Assembly (NCBI GenBank): GCA_903825245.1
Contig: CAIJZX010000012.1
Location: 76,059 to 140,058 of the forward strand
Direction of reading: 5' to 3'
Length of the DNA: 64,000 nucleotides
Source of the DNA: Candidatus Kerfeldbacteria bacterium
GTDB lineage: Bacteria; Patescibacteriota; Patescibacteriia; SBBC01; CAIJZX01
This document shows positions 2,117 to 59,085 of this stretch, piece after piece. Position 1 is the first letter of the stretch, and every line of letters begins with the position of its first letter. The notes beneath the pieces were generated by a model. The model had not been told where the DNA came from. It saw only the letters and a list, made by a program, of their open reading frames with translations, and ran no database searches. A program made the translations under genes and the position numbers.

Positions 2117-3373
2117 TTACTTCAGGCTTCGAAGAATTTCCGTCGCATCCCCTGCCGAAACCTTCCCGCTTGCCCGATCGACAATTTCGAATGCTTTGGC
2201 TGCCACTGTTTTACTGCTCACCACCACGCGCATTGGAATACCAATCAAGTCGCTGTCAGCGAATTTTTGACCAGCTGTCGCATCGATACGATCATCATGA
2301 AGTACTTCGATACCTTCTTGTTCTAAGGATACAATCAGATCTCTTACCCCGCTCGAGATGACAGAATCTTGTTTTGGATTTAGTTCAACCACGTGCACAT
2401 CAAATGGTGCAATTGCTTTCGGCCATACGAGACCTTTTTCGTCACCTAATACCTCAACTACGGTCGCCAATAAACGTCCCAGTCCAATTCCATAGCAACC
2501 CATCACTACCGGATGATGCTTTCCCGTTTCATCGGCAAATGTTAATCCCAGTGGTTCAGAATATTGTGTACCCAGCTTGAAAATATTACCGACTTCGATT
2601 GCTTTGACTTCATCGAAATCCTTGGTCGTTTTCTTGTACATCGTTAAGGCCTCGTCATTGTATACTTCCTTATTGATGGCGACTGATTTATCCTTCGCTA
2701 GATAAATCGTATCCTCGCCGGCGTCGGTCAACGTTTGGAATTCATGTGAGTATTTTGTAAACACCCCGCCGCTGGCAAATGTTTTATAAGTAACATGGCC
2801 GATGCCAACAGCATTGTATATTTTTTTGTACGCTTCTGCCGCGCGTTCGTAGAATATATCAAGGTCAGCTGTATCCTTCGTAAACGAGTATAAGTCTTTC
2901 ATTAAGAATTCTCGACCGCGCAAGAGGCCGGACTTTGCCCGTAATTCATTCCGGAATTTCGTTTGGAACTGATAGACAAATTTTGGCAAGTCACGATATG
3001 AGCCGATAAACTGCTTCATGATGCGTGTCAGCGGCTCTTCGTGTGAAAATGATAAACCAAGCTCGGTATCGTTCTTGAGTTTGGTTTTGAACCAATTATC
3101 GACGACCTTGTCGTCCCATCGACCGCTGGTTTTCCAAAGTTCCGGATCCTGCAAAGCCGTCATTGATACTTCCTGGCCATCAATCGCGTTCATTTCTCGG
3201 CGAATAATACTGACTATTTTATTTTGCACACGAAGGCCAAGCGGCAACATTGAATACACACCGGCTTGTTCTTTAAACACAAATCCGGCGCGAATCAGGA
3301 GTTTGGCGCTTTTTGCGGTCTCGTCCGACGGCGCTTCTTTGCGGGTTTTGGTAAAGAGTTGGGACTGGCGCAT
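2117..3373 (-). CDS. proS: prolyl-tRNA synthetase, short form lacking the INS editing insertion
   Basis: The N-terminus (MRQSQLF.TRKE.PSDE..KSAKLLIRAGF) and class II motifs (FRNELRAKSGLLRGREFLMKD) match ProRS. At 418 aa it lacks the roughly 180 aa insertion domain found in E. coli-type ProRS. Confidence 0.8.
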   Translation of the reverse strand: MRQSQLFTKTRKEAPSDETAKSAKLLIRAGFVFKEQAGVYSMLPLGLRVQNKIVSIIRREMNAIDGQEVSMTALQDPELWKTSGRWDDKVVDNWFKTKLKNDTELGLSFSHEEPLTRIMKQFIGSYRDLPKFVYQFQTKFRNELRAKSGLLRGREFLMKDLYSFTKDTADLDIFYERAAEAYKKIYNAVGIGHVTYKTFASGGVFTKYSHEFQTLTDAGEDTIYLAKDKSVAINKEVYNDEALTMYKKTTKDFDEVKAIEVGNIFKLGTQYSEPLGLTFADETGKHHPVVMGCYGIGLGRLLATVVEVLGDEKGLVWPKAIAPFDVHVVELNPKQDSVISSGVRDLIVSLEQEGIEVLHDDRIDATAGQKFADSDLIGIPMRVVVSSKTVAAKAFEIVDRASGKVSAGDATEILRSLK

Positions 3374-3383
3374 AGTGAAAAAG

Positions 3384-3947
3384 TTATTTGAAGTACACTG
3401 AATGATACCGATAACTAGCCATCGTTCGCGTTGATAAACGGATGAGCATAAAAACCACCAAAATAGTGATCGGCGAAATACGGCTAATCAAACTGATGCC
3501 GGAAAAGAACAGGGCCGCGCAAAACTCAATGAATTCGAATCGCTGCCAATTGACGAGAAACGGCCGATCGTGTAGATCGAGTTTGTATGATTTCTGCAAT
3601 CGCCACATCCAAACCAAATCAGCAAGTCGGTAAATGGCGAAAGCAAATAGTAATACAGCCAGCGATCGCTGAGTTGCAAAGACCAAATAAAACATCATAA
3701 AAATAATGACGAAGTGCAGCACCACGTCAATCTCCCGTTTGAACGGATAACGCTTCAAGACCGGCGAATAGTCGATCCAGTAATCAATCAGATTTAAATA
3801 AATGAAAATAAAAGCAATGTACTGCCATGGCTGATGGAGATTTGGCCACCACTGAAAACCTAAACCCAATACAATGCCGATCATGATATCGGCAAATTTC
3901 AAACTGAAATCGCGTAATTGTTTTTGTTCAGAAGCGTTAGCGGGCAT
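3384..3947 (-). CDS. polytopic membrane protein, unknown function
   Basis: Several hydrophobic helices are present. The likely start is the internal Met (MPANASEQKQ) at 3947. Confidence 0.4.
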   Translation of the reverse strand: MPANASEQKQLRDFSLKFADIMIGIVLGLGFQWWPNLHQPWQYIAFIFIYLNLIDYWIDYSPVLKRYPFKREIDVVLHFVIIFMMFYLVFATQRSLAVLLFAFAIYRLADLVWMWRLQKSYKLDLHDRPFLVNWQRFEFIEFCAALFFSGISLISRISPITILVVFMLIRLSTRTMASYRYHSVYFK

Positions 3948-4147
3948 GTCTCTAGTTTGGCGAATTGGAGATTTTCCACTTAAGAAATATGTAAGTAGTA
4001 TGCCAGAAAGAAGCTTATCAGTCAAAGAAAAGCCTACCATGACACTACAATGGATCACGTCGTACCAGCTGTACAAAGAATACAACACCGCCGCTCAACG
4101 GCGGTATAATCCTAAGTCAACTATACGACTTTTTCAAACAACCAAAT

Positions 4148-4603
4148 TTACTGGCCGCGAATCTTGCTGGCTAATGACGCCAATGTCGCGTCATCCGCGC
4201 GTTGGAAATCGTGAGAAGAAATATATCCTTCGTAGTCATCAAAATATTTCTCAACATTAGACTTCAGCGGTTTCCAATCTTTCATCTTCGTACCATGCAT
4301 CGGGAAAAGTTTGGCATGCAGATGGTCGACGCCAAAACCTTCAAACATCACACCCGTACGTCCGACATCCTCGAGTTTTTCATCGAGCAGTTTAGCCACT
4401 GTTCGAACCGCGTGCATCAGCCCATCAAGTACGTCTATTGGAACATCAGCAAAATAACTCGGCTGGTGCGCCTTAGGAATAACGACAGTAAACCCTTTCG
4501 TATTCGGAAAGATCGACAGAAAGGCCATATACTTTTCATCCTGCCAAATCATGTGGGCTAGCGATGCTCCCTGGGCGATAGCGCAAAAAATACAGTCGTT
4601 CAT
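4148..4603 (-). CDS. HIT-family (histidine triad) hydrolase
   Basis: CIFCAI near the N-terminus and the HLHAKLFPMHG histidine-triad motif are present. Confidence 0.7.
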   Translation of the reverse strand: MNDCIFCAIAQGASLAHMIWQDEKYMAFLSIFPNTKGFTVVIPKAHQPSYFADVPIDVLDGLMHAVRTVAKLLDEKLEDVGRTGVMFEGFGVDHLHAKLFPMHGTKMKDWKPLKSNVEKYFDDYEGYISSHDFQRADDATLASLASKIRGQ

Positions 4604-5184
4604 GATGATTGCCGCTGTTGACGTTTATGAAAAAGATACATTAATCCAAGTACCAATAATCCACCAATCATATTCTGAAACAAATCGTGTGGGGTATCAT
4701 ATGGACCGCGGACGCGCGAGGTGTGGAACCAGAAATCACCAAGCCACTCACTCATTTCGTAGATTGCCCCAAGCATTTGCCCAATGAGAAAACCCATCCA
4801 AGCGGCAAATGGCCAATCAGCATTTAATTTTCCCGATTTTCGAAGTGCCAAAAAAATATCGATGAACAACGCGCTCAGTGCCATTCCGCCCATGGTATGC
4901 GTTATGCGATCCCACCACCAGTACCCGCCGTACAAATGCTGAAAATTCCCTAAGGCATCAAGCCATACCGATCCGGCCACGAAAAGAAAAGTAATAATCG
5001 AAAGTTTGCTCCCCTTGCGGAGCAGCCAACGGTCAAACCATAGCACACCAATCATTGTCGCTACATCGGTAATAGCTAAGGCTATTTGCCGTTGTGTTGT
5101 ATCATAGTGTGTGAACAGTTCAATACCAAGCAATACCAGTTGCACAAAGATAAACGACCAAACGATTATTTTTCTGTTATTCAT
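4600..5184 (-). CDS. membrane protein, unknown function
   Basis: The protein is hydrophobic and Trp-rich. Its likely start (MNNRKII) at 5184 overlaps the mntH stop by 4 nt. Confidence 0.4.
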   Translation of the reverse strand: MNNRKIIVWSFIFVQLVLLGIELFTHYDTTQRQIALAITDVATMIGVLWFDRWLLRKGSKLSIITFLFVAGSVWLDALGNFQHLYGGYWWWDRITHTMGGMALSALFIDIFLALRKSGKLNADWPFAAWMGFLIGQMLGAIYEMSEWLGDFWFHTSRVRGPYDTPHDLFQNMIGGLLVLGLMYLFHKRQQRQSS

Positions 5185-20586: not shown

Positions 20587-20661
20587 GGGTTCCTAGCTCA
20601 ATGGTAGAGCAACGGCCTTTTAAGCCGTGGGTTCTGGGTTCGAGTCCCAGGGGACCCACCA
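20587..20661 (+). tRNA. tRNA-Lys (anticodon UUU), CCA encoded
   Basis: The 7-bp acceptor stem is gggttcc/gggaccc, the D-arm gctc-aatggta-gagc, the anticodon stem acggc/gccgt with loop cTTTTaa, and the T-arm ctggg-ttcgagt-cccag. Confidence 0.85.
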
Positions 20662-22418: not shown

Positions 22419-22743
22419 AGGACAAGAGAGGTAACTAGCCCAGAACTATGCAAACATGATTATCATACTCGTTTTATTGCTATAAAGCCATAATTGCTAA
22501 CCCGAGGTAATTAAACTATAATTCAATCTGTTTCCGAGGCCTAGATGCTCATTTCTACAATTTACTTAGCCTAAACTTCGGCCTATGGCCGGGGCACGGC
22601 GATCAAACCAAGAGAGGCGAACAGCTCCTAGTCAGAGCACCTCTCTTGGTCGTGCGTGGAAACGCGCACGGGTGGCCGTAAGGTCATCGCTGGCTAGGGG
22701 CTTTGTGTTTGTACAAACCCGCCGCCAGATATTTACAAAATAT

Positions 22744-32718: not shown

Positions 32719-32837
32719 AGAACCACAGTATACGGAATATCTGCCCAGTCTTCAAGACTGTGGATGAATTCGGTGGACAAGATGGTATCAACAGCCGTTG
32801 CAGGTAATGCCCTCCTCAGGTACACTACTTGAGCTAT

Positions 32838-32917
32838 GTCCCGTTAGAAACTCCTTGGGACAAGCCTTAATTTCAACTATGGTTTTCGAACTCATTATAG
32901 GAAGTTTCTAACGGGAC
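32838..32917 (+). promoter_or_regulatory. 15-bp perfect inverted repeat (GTCCCGTTAGAAACT ... AGTTTCTAACGGGAC) in the dnaB 5' leader
   Basis: The arms lie at 32838-32852 and 32903-32917. The right arm ends 1 nt before the dnaB ATG, and the loop is 50 nt. Confidence 0.4.
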
Positions 32918-32918
32918 T

Positions 32919-34289
32919 ATGGCCATTACTTCTGAACTCCGCATACCACCCCAGCAACTCGAGGCTGAACAGGCCGTCTTAGGGTCAATGCTGATTGACC
33001 GCGATGCAGTTATTCGAATTGCTGATACGCTGATTCCGGAGGATATGTATGCCGATAAGCATCGTTTCATCTACGATGCCATGTTGACGTTGTACCAACG
33101 CCACGACCCAATCGACATTGTCGCCCTCTCAAACCTTCTCGAAGAGCGCAAACAATTGGACACCGTGGGCGGACGAAGCTTCCTGGTATCGTTGTCGAAC
33201 GCAGTTCCGACCGCCGCTAATATCGTTCAGTACGCCCAAATTGTTCAAAAGAAAGCTACACTCCGGCGTTTACTCGACGCGGCTGGAACGATGCTCCAGC
33301 TCGGGTATGAAGAAACCGAGGATGTTTCTGCTTTGCTCGATAAAGCCGAACAATCAATCTTCAACGTTTCGCAACGCTACCTTCGCCAGAATTTCATTAA
33401 CATTCGCGACGTCCTCGATCAAGCTTTCGACCGTATCGACCAGCTCCACCATGATTCGGGACAATTGCGTGGCGTACCGACCGGCTTTACGAAACTCGAC
33501 TCACTTCTCGGTGGTCTGCAAAAATCCGACCTTATTATTCTTGCCGCTCGTCCATCTGTTGGTAAGACATCATTAGCGCTTGATATCGGACGCAACGTCG
33601 CGGTCAAAACGAAACAACCGGTCGGCATCTTCAGCTTAGAAATGTCCAAGGAACAACTCGTTGATCGTTTGCTCGTGGCACAAGCCGACGTCGATTTGTG
33701 GAAAATGCGCACCGGTCGTTTGAAAGACGATGAAGACTTTCAACGCATCGGCCATGCCATGGGCATGCTCGCGGAAGCACCGATTTTCATTGACGATAGC
33801 GCTAGCGCGAATATCATGGAACTCCGCACTAAGGCACGACGATTGCAAGCCGAACACAAAGGTCTCGGATTGATCATCATCGACTACCTCCAACTGATGG
33901 AGAGCCGGACGGGCGAAAACCGCACGCAGGAAATTTCGGAAATTACTCGCGGCTTGAAATCAATTGCTCGCGAATTGAACGTGCCAGTGCTCGCGCTTTC
34001 GCAGTTGTCCCGCGCCGTCGAACTCGAGCGGCCGCCGATCCCGAAACTCGCCCACCTTCGCGAATCCGGTTCAATCGAACAGGACGCCGACGTGGTCATG
34101 TTTATCTACCGTCCGGCCGTCTATGACCGCGATATCGAGGAAGATAAGAAGAACTTAGCTGAAATTATTGTCGCCAAACATCGTAACGGTCCAACCGGCC
34201 GCGTGAACCTCTCTTTCGTCGACCGACGAGCTTCCTTCGATAACCGCGAAGAACGCCCGGGCGAAACCGAGTTTTCGAGCGAGGGATAA
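32919..34289 (+). CDS. dnaB: replicative DNA helicase DnaB
   Basis: The N-terminal IPPQQLEAEQAVLGSMLID is followed by Walker A (ARPSVGKTS) and the rest of the DnaB C-terminal domain. Confidence 0.9.
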   Translation: MAITSELRIPPQQLEAEQAVLGSMLIDRDAVIRIADTLIPEDMYADKHRFIYDAMLTLYQRHDPIDIVALSNLLEERKQLDTVGGRSFLVSLSNAVPTAANIVQYAQIVQKKATLRRLLDAAGTMLQLGYEETEDVSALLDKAEQSIFNVSQRYLRQNFINIRDVLDQAFDRIDQLHHDSGQLRGVPTGFTKLDSLLGGLQKSDLIILAARPSVGKTSLALDIGRNVAVKTKQPVGIFSLEMSKEQLVDRLLVAQADVDLWKMRTGRLKDDEDFQRIGHAMGMLAEAPIFIDDSASANIMELRTKARRLQAEHKGLGLIIIDYLQLMESRTGENRTQEISEITRGLKSIARELNVPVLALSQLSRAVELERPPIPKLAHLRESGSIEQDADVVMFIYRPAVYDRDIEEDKKNLAEIIVAKHRNGPTGRVNLSFVDRRASFDNREERPGETEFSSEG

Positions 34290-38830: not shown

Positions 38831-38975
38831 AGGAAAATAGGAAAAGTAGTGCCCCGACAGTGTACCGGATTCGCTATTGACTGTCAACCCAGCACTACAA
38901 TAGTGCACTCCAAATATGGTGAATAAGCAAATAATGCACTAGAAAAGGAAAAATAGTCCACTAAAGTGGTTTTTT

Positions 38976-39518
38976 CTATTGTAGTGCTGGGTCAACCCCT
39001 GTATTGACCGTCTGGTGATTCGTGACCACATCAACCCTGGCCACATCCCCGACTTGGATCCCATGGCGTTGGATAAACCCACTCGATACTTCGAGAACAC
39101 CATCCACCTGGACGTCAGGCTGGATGATCGGTAAGTCGGTTGAAGTTGGGTTCGAGGGTGGTGGAACATCGGCTTCTACTTCCACAACCTGGCCGTTATT
39201 CAACCAAATGAAGTCTAATGGAATCAACATACCTTTCATCCAAAAAGACGGGCGCTCCGGCGTAGGATACTGCCAGTACATTCCCTCGTTATCGTTCAAT
39301 AATCTGCGTCCGCCAAGCCCAAGCTCCTGAGTGGCGCTCGTAGTCGGAATTTGTACGGTGATACTCGTATCAGAAAATTGAATACGAGCATGCGCGTAGC
39401 CTTGGGTATCAACATCCGACGTATTCGAGAATACGAGTTGTTTTTCATACGGCCAAAACAAGGCTACCACAAACAAGTAAAAGGCAGCCGCAACGATGAC
39501 AAACCAAAGCGATTTCAT
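38976..39518 (-). CDS. DUF192-domain protein
   Basis: A signal anchor is present together with the MLIPLDFIWL motif. Confidence 0.5.
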   Translation of the reverse strand: MKSLWFVIVAAAFYLFVVALFWPYEKQLVFSNTSDVDTQGYAHARIQFSDTSITVQIPTTSATQELGLGGRRLLNDNEGMYWQYPTPERPSFWMKGMLIPLDFIWLNNGQVVEVEADVPPPSNPTSTDLPIIQPDVQVDGVLEVSSGFIQRHGIQVGDVARVDVVTNHQTVNTGVDPALQ

Positions 39519-57727: not shown

Positions 57728-58348
57728 CTATCTGATTGTCGGCTGTGTTGCCTCGTCGAGGTGTGTTGAGTCGTTGATAATATGGGCGACGTGGGAGTCA
57801 TCATCGCGCATTTGGACAATCGTTACGCCGGTGTTGACGGTCCGAATTGGCGGATCTTTCTCGTAGTCTTGTTTCAGCAAATACACCAGCAGGGCACGAA
57901 TAAATCCCATGTGTGAGACGACCAGCACGGTTTTTCCCGCATATTCTTTCCGAAACTGTTGAATGAAGTGCGCAGCCCGGTCTCGCGTTTCCAACATTGA
58001 TTCACCATTGACCGGGCGATACTCATACCATTTCACGCCGCTTTTTTCGGCTGCGGCCATAAATTCTTCCCGCGGCTTGCCTTCCATCTCGCCCATGTGG
58101 CGTTCGCGAAGATCTTCGCTGATATGTAAGGCAATCCCCGGATGAAATTGCAAAATCCCCTGCGCCGTATCGCGCGCCCGCTCAGCGTCGCTCGTAAACG
58201 CGGCATCAATGTGTTCGTTTTTTAGCCGGTCAGCCACGCGCTCAACTTGTGCTTTTCCTTTTTCCGTCAGACGCGATGGACCGTGCGCGACCATCAGCGG
58301 TCCGACGTTATGTTCCGCTTCAGCGTGACGTACAATGATGAGTTTCAT
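57728..58348 (-). CDS. histidine phosphatase (phosphoglycerate-mutase-like) family protein, paralog 2
   Basis: MKLIIVRHAEAEHN and a later VVSHMGF second-His motif are present. Confidence 0.65.
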   Translation of the reverse strand: MKLIIVRHAEAEHNVGPLMVAHGPSRLTEKGKAQVERVADRLKNEHIDAAFTSDAERARDTAQGILQFHPGIALHISEDLRERHMGEMEGKPREEFMAAAEKSGVKWYEYRPVNGESMLETRDRAAHFIQQFRKEYAGKTVLVVSHMGFIRALLVYLLKQDYEKDPPIRTVNTGVTIVQMRDDDSHVAHIINDSTHLDEATQPTIR

Positions 58349-58449
58349 CCCGTTAGAGGTGATTGAAATAAGAACTATCTGAATTGTTTCTGGTAGAAAC
58401 TTGAAATGCGACTTTCGGAATTTGCATAGTATTGGTCACCTCTAACGGG
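58349..58449 (-). promoter_or_regulatory. 14-bp perfect inverted repeat filling the intergenic space between the two phosphatase paralogs
   Basis: CCCGTTAGAGGTGA lies at 58349-58362 and TCACCTCTAACGGG at 58436-58449, with a 73-nt loop. The distal arm on the mRNA abuts the downstream start codon. Confidence 0.4.
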
Positions 58450-58458
58450 ATTTCATGA

Positions 58459-59085
58459 TTACGCGTTTTCTCCTTCTTCGTTAACATGTGTAAGATGACT
58501 AACGTCATTTATTAACATTGGCTTAGCCGGTCCTTGTATTGGAATGTCGAGTATCGTTACAGCCGTATTGTGATGATGGTATTCTTCTTTTTCCACATCA
58601 GCACCTTCTTCGAGCGCCCATTCCATCAATGTTGAAAGAAAGAGTCCATGGCTAACAACTACCACCGTGCGTTTTGCATCGCGAACACGATGGTCCTCAT
58701 ACCATCGCCGCGCACGTTCTTTCACCTCGCGCATTGACTCGCCACCCTCCGGTTTCCAATCGCGAAAATGTTGCCCGGATTTTATGAACGCTTCTTTTTT
58801 TGCTACTACCGGCTGGTGGGTAAAAACACCCGAATCCCGTTCACGAAGTTCAACTTCTTGTGCCTGTTTTGCTTCCGGATGATGTTCAGCGATGAGCGAT
58901 GCCGTCTGTTGGGCGCGAATCATATCGCTCGAATAGATGATATCGATTTGTTCATCAGCCAAACGCCGAGCCACAGCCGCCGCTTGACTTAGACCTACCT
59001 TATTCAATGCCATATCACTCGATCCAGCTAGTGTTTCAGATACGTTTCGATCGGTTTCGCCGTGACGGACGATAATGAGTTTCAT
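58459..59085 (-). CDS. histidine phosphatase (phosphoglycerate-mutase-like) family protein, paralog 1
   Basis: MKLIIVRHGETDRN and VVSHGLF motifs are present. Confidence 0.7.
   Translation of the reverse strand: MKLIIVRHGETDRNVSETLAGSSDMALNKVGLSQAAAVARRLADEQIDIIYSSDMIRAQQTASLIAEHHPEAKQAQEVELRERDSGVFTHQPVVAKKEAFIKSGQHFRDWKPEGGESMREVKERARRWYEDHRVRDAKRTVVVVSHGLFLSTLMEWALEEGADVEKEEYHHHNTAVTILDIPIQGPAKPMLINDVSHLTHVNEEGENA

Follow-up and report, generated by a model that had tools for sequence, protein, structure and literature searches.

Two start-codon hairpins in a Candidatus Kerfeldbacteria genome as probable copies of a miniature transposon family that regenerates start codons

Bacterial MITEs (miniature inverted-repeat transposable elements) include the Correia elements (CREE) of Neisseria, RUP, ERIC, Nezha and the Rickettsia palindromic elements. 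Bacterial MITEs have been reviewed (PMC3184786). Here we describe two hairpins from a stretch of 64,000 nucleotides (the window) of a Candidatus Kerfeldbacteria bacterium (Patescibacteriota; assembly GCA_903825245.1, contig CAIJZX010000012.1, positions 76,059 to 140,058 of the forward strand), one located at the start codon of dnaB and the other at that of a histidine phosphatase gene. We propose that both are copies of a family of nonautonomous DNA transposons, i.e. a MITE family, that regenerates start codons; our rough probability for this reading is 0.78. The family resembles known bacterial MITEs in that its members are small and non-coding, possess terminal inverted repeats that would form a long hairpin in the transcript, are bordered by target-site duplications and occur in many copies. 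Presence/absence polymorphism and insertion near or within transcription units, with possible effects on expression, are further shared traits. The family differs from them in that its copies have just 13 bp per end in common, with a 9-mer found in several phyla and a free interior, and in that 41% of the listed copies abut a start codon, which is rebuilt from the terminal purine of the element and a duplicated TG. No description of such a family was found in the searchable literature, whose coverage of full texts is incomplete. It is a real and apparently undescribed MITE family with unusual start-codon occupancy.

Element 1 (78 bp, 32839-32916, no strand assigned; TCCCGTTAGA...TCTAACGGGA) is inserted at the start codon of dnaB (32919-34289, + strand). 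The product of this gene contains domains PF00772 and PF03796, matches proteins named replicative DNA helicase and is 100% identical to protein P0001 of the homolog database; an exact-protein look-up gave no match. The DnaB matches place the genome among Patescibacteria, near Candidatus Kerfeldbacteria. The left arm GTCCCGTTAGAAACT (32838-32852, +) and the right arm AGTTTCTAACGGGAC (32903-32917, +) are 15 nt long, 100% complementary to each other and separated by a loop of 50 nt; the right arm includes a TAA triplet (32909-32911) and ends 1 nt before the ATG at 32919. The element is bracketed by a 5-bp target-site duplication, CTATG, which relatives possess in a single copy. The left copy (32834-32838, +) contains the original ATG (32836-32838), now a decoy, and the right copy (32917-32921, +) includes the working ATG of dnaB (32919-32921). 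The decoy opens a mini-ORF (open reading frame), ATG TCC CGT TAG (MSR*, 32836-32847, +), whose stop codon is a TAG within the left arm. A -10-like hexamer, TACACT (32821-32826, +), presumably part of a leaderless-type promoter, still lies 9 nt upstream of the original ATG, and the working ATG is situated 83 nt further downstream.

Element 2 (103 bp, 58348-58450, - strand; TCCCGTTAGAGGTGA...TCACCTCTAACGGGA) separates two phosphatase paralogs, both on the minus strand. The working ATG of the downstream histidine phosphatase gene (57728-58348, PF00300) takes its A from the final base of the element, 58348, and the upstream paralog (58459-59085) ends with a TAA (58461-58459) 2 nt before the decoy ATG (58456-58454). 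The arms are 16 nt long and enclose a loop of 73 nt. The 5' arm ATCCCGTTAGAGGTGA (58436-58451, -) holds a TAG and a GAGGTGA motif similar to a Shine-Dalgarno (SD) sequence, and the 3' arm TCACCTCTAACGGGAT (58347-58362, -) holds a TAA 4 nt before the ATG and overlaps the AT of the start codon. The duplication is again 5 bp long: the upstream TGAAA (58451-58455, -) is part of the decoy ATGAAA, and the downstream TGAAA (58343-58347, -) forms the working ATG AAA together with the terminal A of the element (on the plus strand both copies read TTTCA). The decoy mini-ORF is ATG AAA TCC CGT TAG (MKSR*, 58442-58456, -). The original SD sequence AAGGAG (58470-58475, -), read directly, lies 13 nt upstream of the decoy ATG and outside of the element.

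The original prediction, made from the letters of the window, had described the dnaB repeat exactly: 15-nt perfect arms, a 50-nt loop and a right arm ending 1 nt before the ATG. For the phosphatase repeat, the 73-nt loop and the contact with the ATG hold, and the arms measure 16 nt, not 14 bp as had been given. The core common to both hairpins (CCCGTTAGA/TCTAACGGG) and the common placement of an arm at a start codon were also recognized correctly; the direct repeat of 5 bp that brackets each element was overlooked. The prediction further held that the two hairpins are not due to chance. The window contains three perfect 15-nt inverted repeats spaced 40-120 nt apart, and about 0.005 are expected per 64 kb according to our own calculation with uniform base composition. 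Both regions are far more stable when folded than shuffled sequences, with -39.7 kcal/mol for the region of element 1 (z = -5.3) and -34.7 kcal/mol for that of element 2 (z = -4.6). The predicted folds place all or part of each working start codon within the extended stem. The octamer CCCGTTAG occurs four times in the window, each time at one of the four arm positions, with 1.28 occurrences expected and four reached in 2 of 100 shuffles; taken alone, this count is weak evidence. A relaxed search of the window revealed no further members of the family.

Comparison with relatives identifies both copies as insertions. The intergenic region between the RNase T gene and dnaB was compared across nine relatives. 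In L130, whose DnaB is 90% identical, it reads ggtacactacttgagCTATGgct: the upstream 20 nt are those of the window, CTATG is present once and there is no element. The site is also empty in L124, L123, L129, L131 and L132, so that the arms are absent from the orthologous dnaB leaders of all six of these relatives. In L121/L122 and L125, the same dnaB start codon is occupied by another element, about 170 bp long, that shares the termini. At the phosphatase site, two relatives (L126 and L127) have the stop codon of the upstream paralog, 2-6 nt and the ATG with no element in between, and the left junction in the window retains this empty-site layout (TAA tc ATGAAA). Because 5-bp direct repeats flank each element and close relatives show the uninterrupted site, both window copies are, on this comparison, insertions, each lying inside a start codon or immediately behind one. 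A more distant set of 80 dnaB loci from the candidate phyla radiation (CPR), 214 kb in total, was picked by DnaB rather than by the element. None of these loci carries the element at the start of dnaB (79/79 without), and the whole set includes one family element. As no start is occupied in the more distant loci, the hairpin is not a conserved dnaB leader.

The elements of L121 and L125 constitute an orthologous filled pair. Their arms (28 + 26 nt, i.e. 54 nt) are identical and the 115-nt interior differs by about 25%; the arms thus appear to have been constrained after insertion. L121, a close relative from Hainich groundwater, possesses three family elements within 4.4 kb (1012-1144, 1331-1501 and 3272-3366), each abutting a start codon: those of the RNase T gene, dnaB and recR. 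The recR element, present also in L147 (1663-1759), spans the entire gap from the ybaB stop codon TAA to the GTG of recR. Judged against relatives, the decoy ATG and the spacer appear to have been deleted after insertion of this copy.

The distribution of the family was determined by scanning one genome per species (596 Gb) with the pattern CCCGTTAG-N57-87-CTAACGGG. At least 120 loci were found in these species-representative genomes. This count proves nothing in itself: by our own calculation, about 4000 chance matches to the 16-base pattern would be expected in 596 Gb. The matches listed nevertheless clearly form a family, as is evident from the arms extending past the searched core, the paired base outside CCCG, the exact 4-bp repeats and the T-N-N-A target described below. 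Among the matches listed, 116 elements were retained under strict criteria, and most counts given below are based on them. As sequence records name their hosts, about 55 loci belong to Patescibacteria, 18 to "delta" metagenome-assembled genomes (MAGs) of Desulfobacterota type, 13 to Planctomycetota, 7 to Omnitrophota and 3 to Nitrospirota; these numbers are derived from the matches listed and are not frequencies. Nearly none of the matches listed come from cultured groups. The pattern is also present in eleven viral contigs. One Mu-like phage contig (IMGVR_UViG_3300038429_000794; L136, L143, L146), which encodes capsid, Mu F and Mu transposase domains, bears at least three family elements; phages could move the family from host to host.

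The elements are 56-170 bp long, and their interiors are unrelated in sequence between copies and contain no transposase gene; the ORFs within them encode incidental peptides of 10-38 codons. Subfamilies nevertheless exist, whose interiors are 78-85% identical in different genomes and whose flanks are wholly unrelated. Near-identical copies are found within single contigs, with up to three per 8-kb locus. The terminal inverted repeat of 13 bp consists of a pyrimidine (Y), CCCGTTAGA and three bases that vary and covary with their partners. In elements chosen by the 8-mer only, Watson-Crick pairing at positions 10, 11 and 12 amounts to 86%, 88% and 68%, compared with 42%, 45% and 34% for shuffled partners. 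Four types of pair occur at each of these positions, and pairing at position 13 is at background level. The base directly outside CCCG is paired with its partner (C:G or T:A) in 88% of elements.

The terminal Y and R are adjoined by an exact 4-bp direct repeat in 64 of the 116 listed elements, as opposed to 8.5 with shuffled partners. The duplicated target is T-N-N-A, mainly TGAA/TTCA and TAAA/TTTA, preceded by a purine. Where the flanks follow RTNNAY, the two middle bases form a direct repeat in 62 of 78 elements and are complementary in 5 of 78. A duplication of 6 bp (RTNNAY, with the element beginning at CCC) was considered and rejected: among 78 elements, the base adjoining CCCG is complementary to its partner in 73 and identical to the distal flank base in only 35-36. 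The duplication of the family is thus usually 4 bp long, and 5 bp in both window copies. Terminal inverted repeats, copy-specific duplications, small size with no transposase gene, location at non-homologous loci, and both filled and empty sites are all traits of MITEs that the family shows.

Element boundaries may differ between subfamilies. In a subclass represented by L033, L056, L058, L064, L089 and L136 as well as L029, L052, L099, L105 and L145, the arms extend outward (CTTG-Y|CCCG...CGGG|R-CAAG), the left flank AC[CT]TGT recurs with an ATG on the right, and there is no 4-bp duplication. L019 contains two identical inverted copies (2167-5033) around a 2.7-kb segment coding for a secreted-looking protein of 686 aa, and the flanks outside of both copies are also inverted repeats; this arrangement may represent a composite-transposon-like or an inverted-duplication structure. 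A different repeat containing the same 8-mer (CCCGTTAGGGATGCATC...GATGCATCCCTAACGGG, flanked by GCAT/ATGC) was observed in L008, L027 and L092, MAGs of Prevotellaceae and Tannerella, and is probably a separate palindromic element of Bacteroidales.

The placement of an arm at a start codon, already pointed out in the original prediction, is statistically strong in the family. The base after ...CTAACGGG opens an ATG, GTG or TTG ORF of at least 70 codons in 47 of the 116 listed elements, compared with 1.7% of random positions. ORF starts concentrate at exactly this point, with 48 cases at offset 0 and no more than 5 at any other offset. In 18 of the listed elements, the stop codon of the upstream gene is found inside the left copy of the duplication. 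At the sequence level, the route to such junctions is a cut at A|TGAA|N and duplication of TGAA; the terminal purine of the element then makes the right junction R-TGAA an ATG or a GTG. The change from ATG in the left copy to GTG in the right copy is visible in some genes (e.g. in L024 and L041). Since the duplication and the terminal purine leave an intact ATG downstream of the right arm, the coding sequence is untouched.

To obtain an expectation, empty sites were restored and all T-N-N-A sites were classed with crude gene calls. Start junctions account for 20 of 47 insertions and for 2-4% of non-coding, i.e. permissible, TNNA sites; weighted by a position matrix from intergenic copies, the expectation is 2.3%. 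A model that allows RTGAA targets only predicts 23%, and the observed proportion in the T:A-ended class is 72% (13/18). Resemblance of the target motif to the context of start codons, together with loss of insertions into coding sequence, therefore explains a part, not all, of the start bias.

Host sites are of two kinds: operon junctions, and genes whose original ATG is preceded by a TANNNT box. Of the 17 start-abutting sites that lie outside operons, 12 have this box 5-11 nt upstream of the decoy ATG, the distances peaking at 7-10 nt, and on this layout the genes concerned look like leaderless-type genes. The dnaB gene is of this second kind: in all relatives, it has TACACT, TACAAT or TAGACT 9-11 nt upstream of its ATG. 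The divergent genes of RNase T (TATACT, 32727-32732, -) and dnaB (TACACT, 32821-32826, +) each have a -10-like hexamer 8-9 nt before the start and no evident SD sequence. The spacing of these hexamers is conserved in relatives, which suggests leaderless or near-leaderless mRNAs in this CPR lineage.

At sequence level, then, MITE insertion, regeneration of the start codon, a decoy start upstream of the stem and stop codons in both arms are demonstrated. From this arrangement we infer a route for translation across the hairpin. In the transcript, the arms would pair into a stem of 13-16 bp and close over the rebuilt AUG. A ribosome would load at the decoy start, in dnaB by leaderless initiation at the 5' end, in the phosphatase gene by means of the SD sequence and coupling to the upstream paralog. 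It would then cover the left arm, melt the stem and stop at the arm UAG after 3-4 codons. The right arm and the real AUG, freed a few nucleotides from the site of termination, would become available to unmasking or re-initiation on the gene. Indirect support comes from the constrained arms of the L121/L125 pair and from two further features. At each of this lineage's four junctions, which are split evenly between the window and L121, the arm TAG lies in the reading frame of the decoy ATG. Of 33 decoy ORFs in the family, 9 run across the entire element without a stop codon until the arm TAA, 4 nt ahead of the real start, with 2.5 expected. On this model, start and stop/start junctions would be the main tolerated insertion sites in compact genomes, which may explain why the family has accumulated there.

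Small ORFs inside the elements were also noticed. Element 2 contains a 24-codon ORF, MQIPKVAFQVSTRNNSDSSYFNHL* (58353-58427, -), that begins 8 nt past the SD-like GAGGTGA of the left arm and has the arm TAA, 4 nt before the phosphatase ATG, as its stop codon. It could couple translation into the phosphatase gene. A comparable ORF of 10 codons in element 1 (32879-32911) has no SD sequence. Within the family, a small ORF with both SD sequence and ATG is directed toward the gene in 12 of 47 elements and away from it in 8 of 47, so this is not a family feature, and the SD-preceded ORF of element 2 is probably incidental.

Several observations weigh against the proposed reading, the translation model in particular. 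In L125 the decoy ATG has degenerated to AAG, and at the recR copy of L121/L147 it has been deleted. No SD sequence was found near the rebuilt start codons of family elements, and no internal feature distinguishes the gene-facing end of the elements from the far end. Neither 1.09 Mb of element loci nor the window ORFs tested yielded an autonomous copy or a transposase gene with family ends. Instead of the canonical 4 bp, the duplications of this lineage measure 5 bp at both window copies and 3 and 2 bp in L121, an irregularity that is odd for a single DDE transposase. Finally, the excess of start codons surpasses what target motif and loss from coding sequence can produce, even in the RTGAA-only model (72% vs 23%); as this model leaves the excess unexplained, something beyond passive tolerance is at work.

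Use of the hairpin by the host is a rival explanation, an extension of the MITE reading in which a hairpin of transposon origin now serves as a shunt or coupling module and its arms are under host selection. Ribosomes coming from the decoy start, or from an upstream stop codon at the base of the stem, would pass over the closed stem to the start codon beyond it. Translation across structure is known from long-range pairing in RNA phages, the ribosome shunt of cauliflower mosaic virus and the bypass in T4 gene 60. Translational coupling and termination-reinitiation take place at ATGA overlaps (PMC6728339). The likeness to these systems, a working analogy only, is that a short ORF terminates at or within the stem's base, and directly 3' of this stem comes the next start; in the stem, the decoy stop faces the bases immediately before the real AUG, and the right-arm TAA precedes the start by 4 nt. 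The present case differs in being a transposon insertion and not an evolved leader, and in needing no matched take-off and landing codons.

In favour of such exaptation, the arms of the L121/L125 pair are perfectly conserved and their interior has diverged. Start junctions are occupied 18-fold above the matrix-weighted expectation, and combined stop/start junctions are occupied in 17% of cases versus 0.2-0.6%. The decoy ORFs that end at the arm TAA, the common frame of decoy ATG and arm TAG, and the presence of the element on an essential gene, dnaB, fit as well. Against it, only one pair of orthologous sites is filled, the majority of relatives manage well with no element, and the decay or deletion of the decoy ATG in L125 and at recR of L121/L147 means that the decoy is not always needed. 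We regard exaptation as rather unlikely, and as more probable than the other alternatives.

In its strongest form, this idea makes the element a "translation-transparent" transposon, whose hairpin would be a bacterial ribosome shunt or coupling device and on whose stem the host would depend after insertion. The element would enter a start codon after its first base, or go into a stop/start junction, and rebuild ATG or GTG with its own purine; the TAG of the left arm and the TAA 4 nt before the new start would deliver ribosomes across the stem to the rebuilt start. If this were true, dependence of the host on the stem would account for the frozen arms, and a mobile element could by such insertion colonise essential genes in the most compact bacterial genomes. 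We consider this form, too, doubtful.

Other explanations deny the MITE nature of the hairpins. One of them would have the elements be palindromes of the repetitive extragenic palindromic (REP)/REPIN type, moved as single-stranded DNA by a REP-associated tyrosine transposase (RAYT), an enzyme of the histidine-hydrophobic-histidine class similar to those of IS200/IS605. Insertions of REP/REPIN and IS200/IS605 elements do not duplicate the target, and REPs are lineage-specific and have a conserved 5' GT[AG]G tetranucleotide. What resembles REPINs, as reportedly described by Bertels and Rainey, is the layout of two conserved arms in inverted orientation around a spacer that varies, the length of about 80-100 bp and the high copy number in some genomes; a long hairpin and location at gene boundaries are further points in common. 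Unlike REPs, the present family duplicates its target, exactly and over 4 bp in the 64 listed elements mentioned above; its flank consensus is R-TNNA, not GTAG, the conserved GT[AG]G tetranucleotide is missing, and the same 9-mer is shared across phyla. Moreover, no Y1 transposase was present among the ORFs tested. We judge this explanation very improbable.

Even more strongly disfavoured is a dedicated cis-regulatory RNA leader (a riboswitch, a thermometer or a protein-binding hairpin) of dnaB and of the phosphatase gene. The original prediction had left the choice between a recurring structured 5' leader and a small MITE-like repeat, and of these the second is the one supported, given the duplications, the empty orthologous sites, more than 110 members elsewhere and subfamilies at unrelated loci. 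It is true that both hairpins are stable and mask the region of the start codon, and that the same arrangement with respect to the ATG is seen repeatedly. If it were a conserved regulator of a particular gene, however, the hairpin would not be missing from the same leader in the six close relatives and in 79 of 79 more distant dnaB loci. The interiors differ in sequence and length, and a conserved interior suited to binding a ligand or a protein is not seen; the host genes are unrelated and target duplications are present. No Rfam family overlaps an element at the gathering threshold in the window and 18 loci, and the relaxed threshold gave only spurious matches to microRNA hairpins there, with E of 0.1 or more. 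A secondary effect of the hairpin on translation would remain plausible. The predicted sequestration of an SD-like arm does not stand as a general claim: the original SD sequence of element 2, AAGGAG, is free outside the element, the real ATG follows the GAGGTGA arm after about 95 nt, and SD-like motifs, counted at 11 of 46 gene-facing ends and 5 of 46 far ends in the family, are not clearly enriched on the side of the gene.

A recombinase site, either an integron attC-like hairpin or an invertible phase-variation switch, is a still poorer candidate. GTTAGA and TCTAAC of the arms fit the attC core motifs GTTRRRY and RYYYAAC, the length of 56-170 bp with a variable centre is reminiscent of attC, and inverted repeats next to gene starts are reminiscent of invertons. 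The order of the motifs is nevertheless opposite to that of attC (GTTAGA at the 5' side, TCTAAC at the 3' side), and neither cassette arrays nor an integrase occur in the neighbourhoods examined. The flanking repeats vary from site to site, as in transposition and unlike a fixed crossover core, and no outward promoter was predicted within either of the two window elements. Chance inverted repeats, for which speak only the marginally unusual 8-mer count and the roughly 4000 expected matches to the scan pattern, are refuted by arms that extend past the searched core in most matches, by flanking duplications, by several copies per contig and by empty sites in relatives.

As for the enzyme that mobilizes the MITE family, IS1380 and piggyBac deserve attention. 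In ISfinder, members of the IS1380 family have ends beginning with CC and duplications of 4-5 bp, and the terminal repeat of piggyBac is 13 bp long, CCCTAGAAAGATA. The latter is close to CCCGTTAGAAAG of some family copies. PiggyBac generates 4-bp duplications of T-N-N-A type (TTAA, with the variants TAAA, TCAA and TATG) and has repeats starting with CCC, and IS1380 is its prokaryotic outgroup (PMC10813416). The present family is similar in its Y-CCC...GGG-R ends, its 13-bp repeat and its 4-bp (in the window 5-bp) duplication, and differs in the extra Y before CCC. A match to particular IS1380 ends was rejected: those of ISEcp1, an IS1247-like element and a Lactobacillus IS1380 (CCTAGATTCTACGT, CCCACATTTCCCAAGT and CCTGAATTATTC) share only CC(C/T) with the family. 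The transposases of these three elements found no match by tblastn in the 1.09 Mb of element loci. Unpaired arms and arm pairs 0.26-4 kb apart in the element loci turned out to be composite or duplicated MITEs only, such as the inverted copies of L019. The irregular duplication lengths of this lineage (5, 5, 3 and 2 bp) also speak against the link. The link to IS1380/piggyBac is thus a tentative lead, not a finding.

The family would add a mobile element found across phyla to the CPR and to further uncultured bacteria, in which transposons are commonly said to be scarce. It also shows how a transposon can persist in genomes with almost no spare DNA, by landing on start codons and stop/start junctions and regenerating them. 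For annotation, it is relevant that the elements shift or hide true starts, so that gene callers may misplace starts or report spurious mini-ORFs. Should the hairpin indeed hand ribosomes over from the decoy to the real start, leaderless initiation, re-initiation and structure-bridged coupling in bacteria could be studied in a system that is both natural and portable.

The window also contains, at 38884-38995, a second, unrelated hairpin element (38888-38991). Its perfect arms of 16 nt (CCCAGCACTACAATAG/CTATTGTAGTGCTGGG) enclose an interior of 72 nt and are flanked by a 4-bp direct repeat, TCAA. The element lies in the last codons of a DUF192 gene (38976-39518, -) and provides its stop codon; the insertion would have changed the C-terminus of the protein from ...GVDSQ* to ...GVDPALQ*. 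With its CCC...GGG ends and T-N-N-A duplication, it fits the style of transposition of the main family. A metagenome scan for its arms gave no matches. Elsewhere in the window, at 22568-22688 and next to a tRNA gene (20587-20658), the LOOT RNA motif (Rfam RF03000) is matched over its full length with 79 bits, its gathering score being 46.

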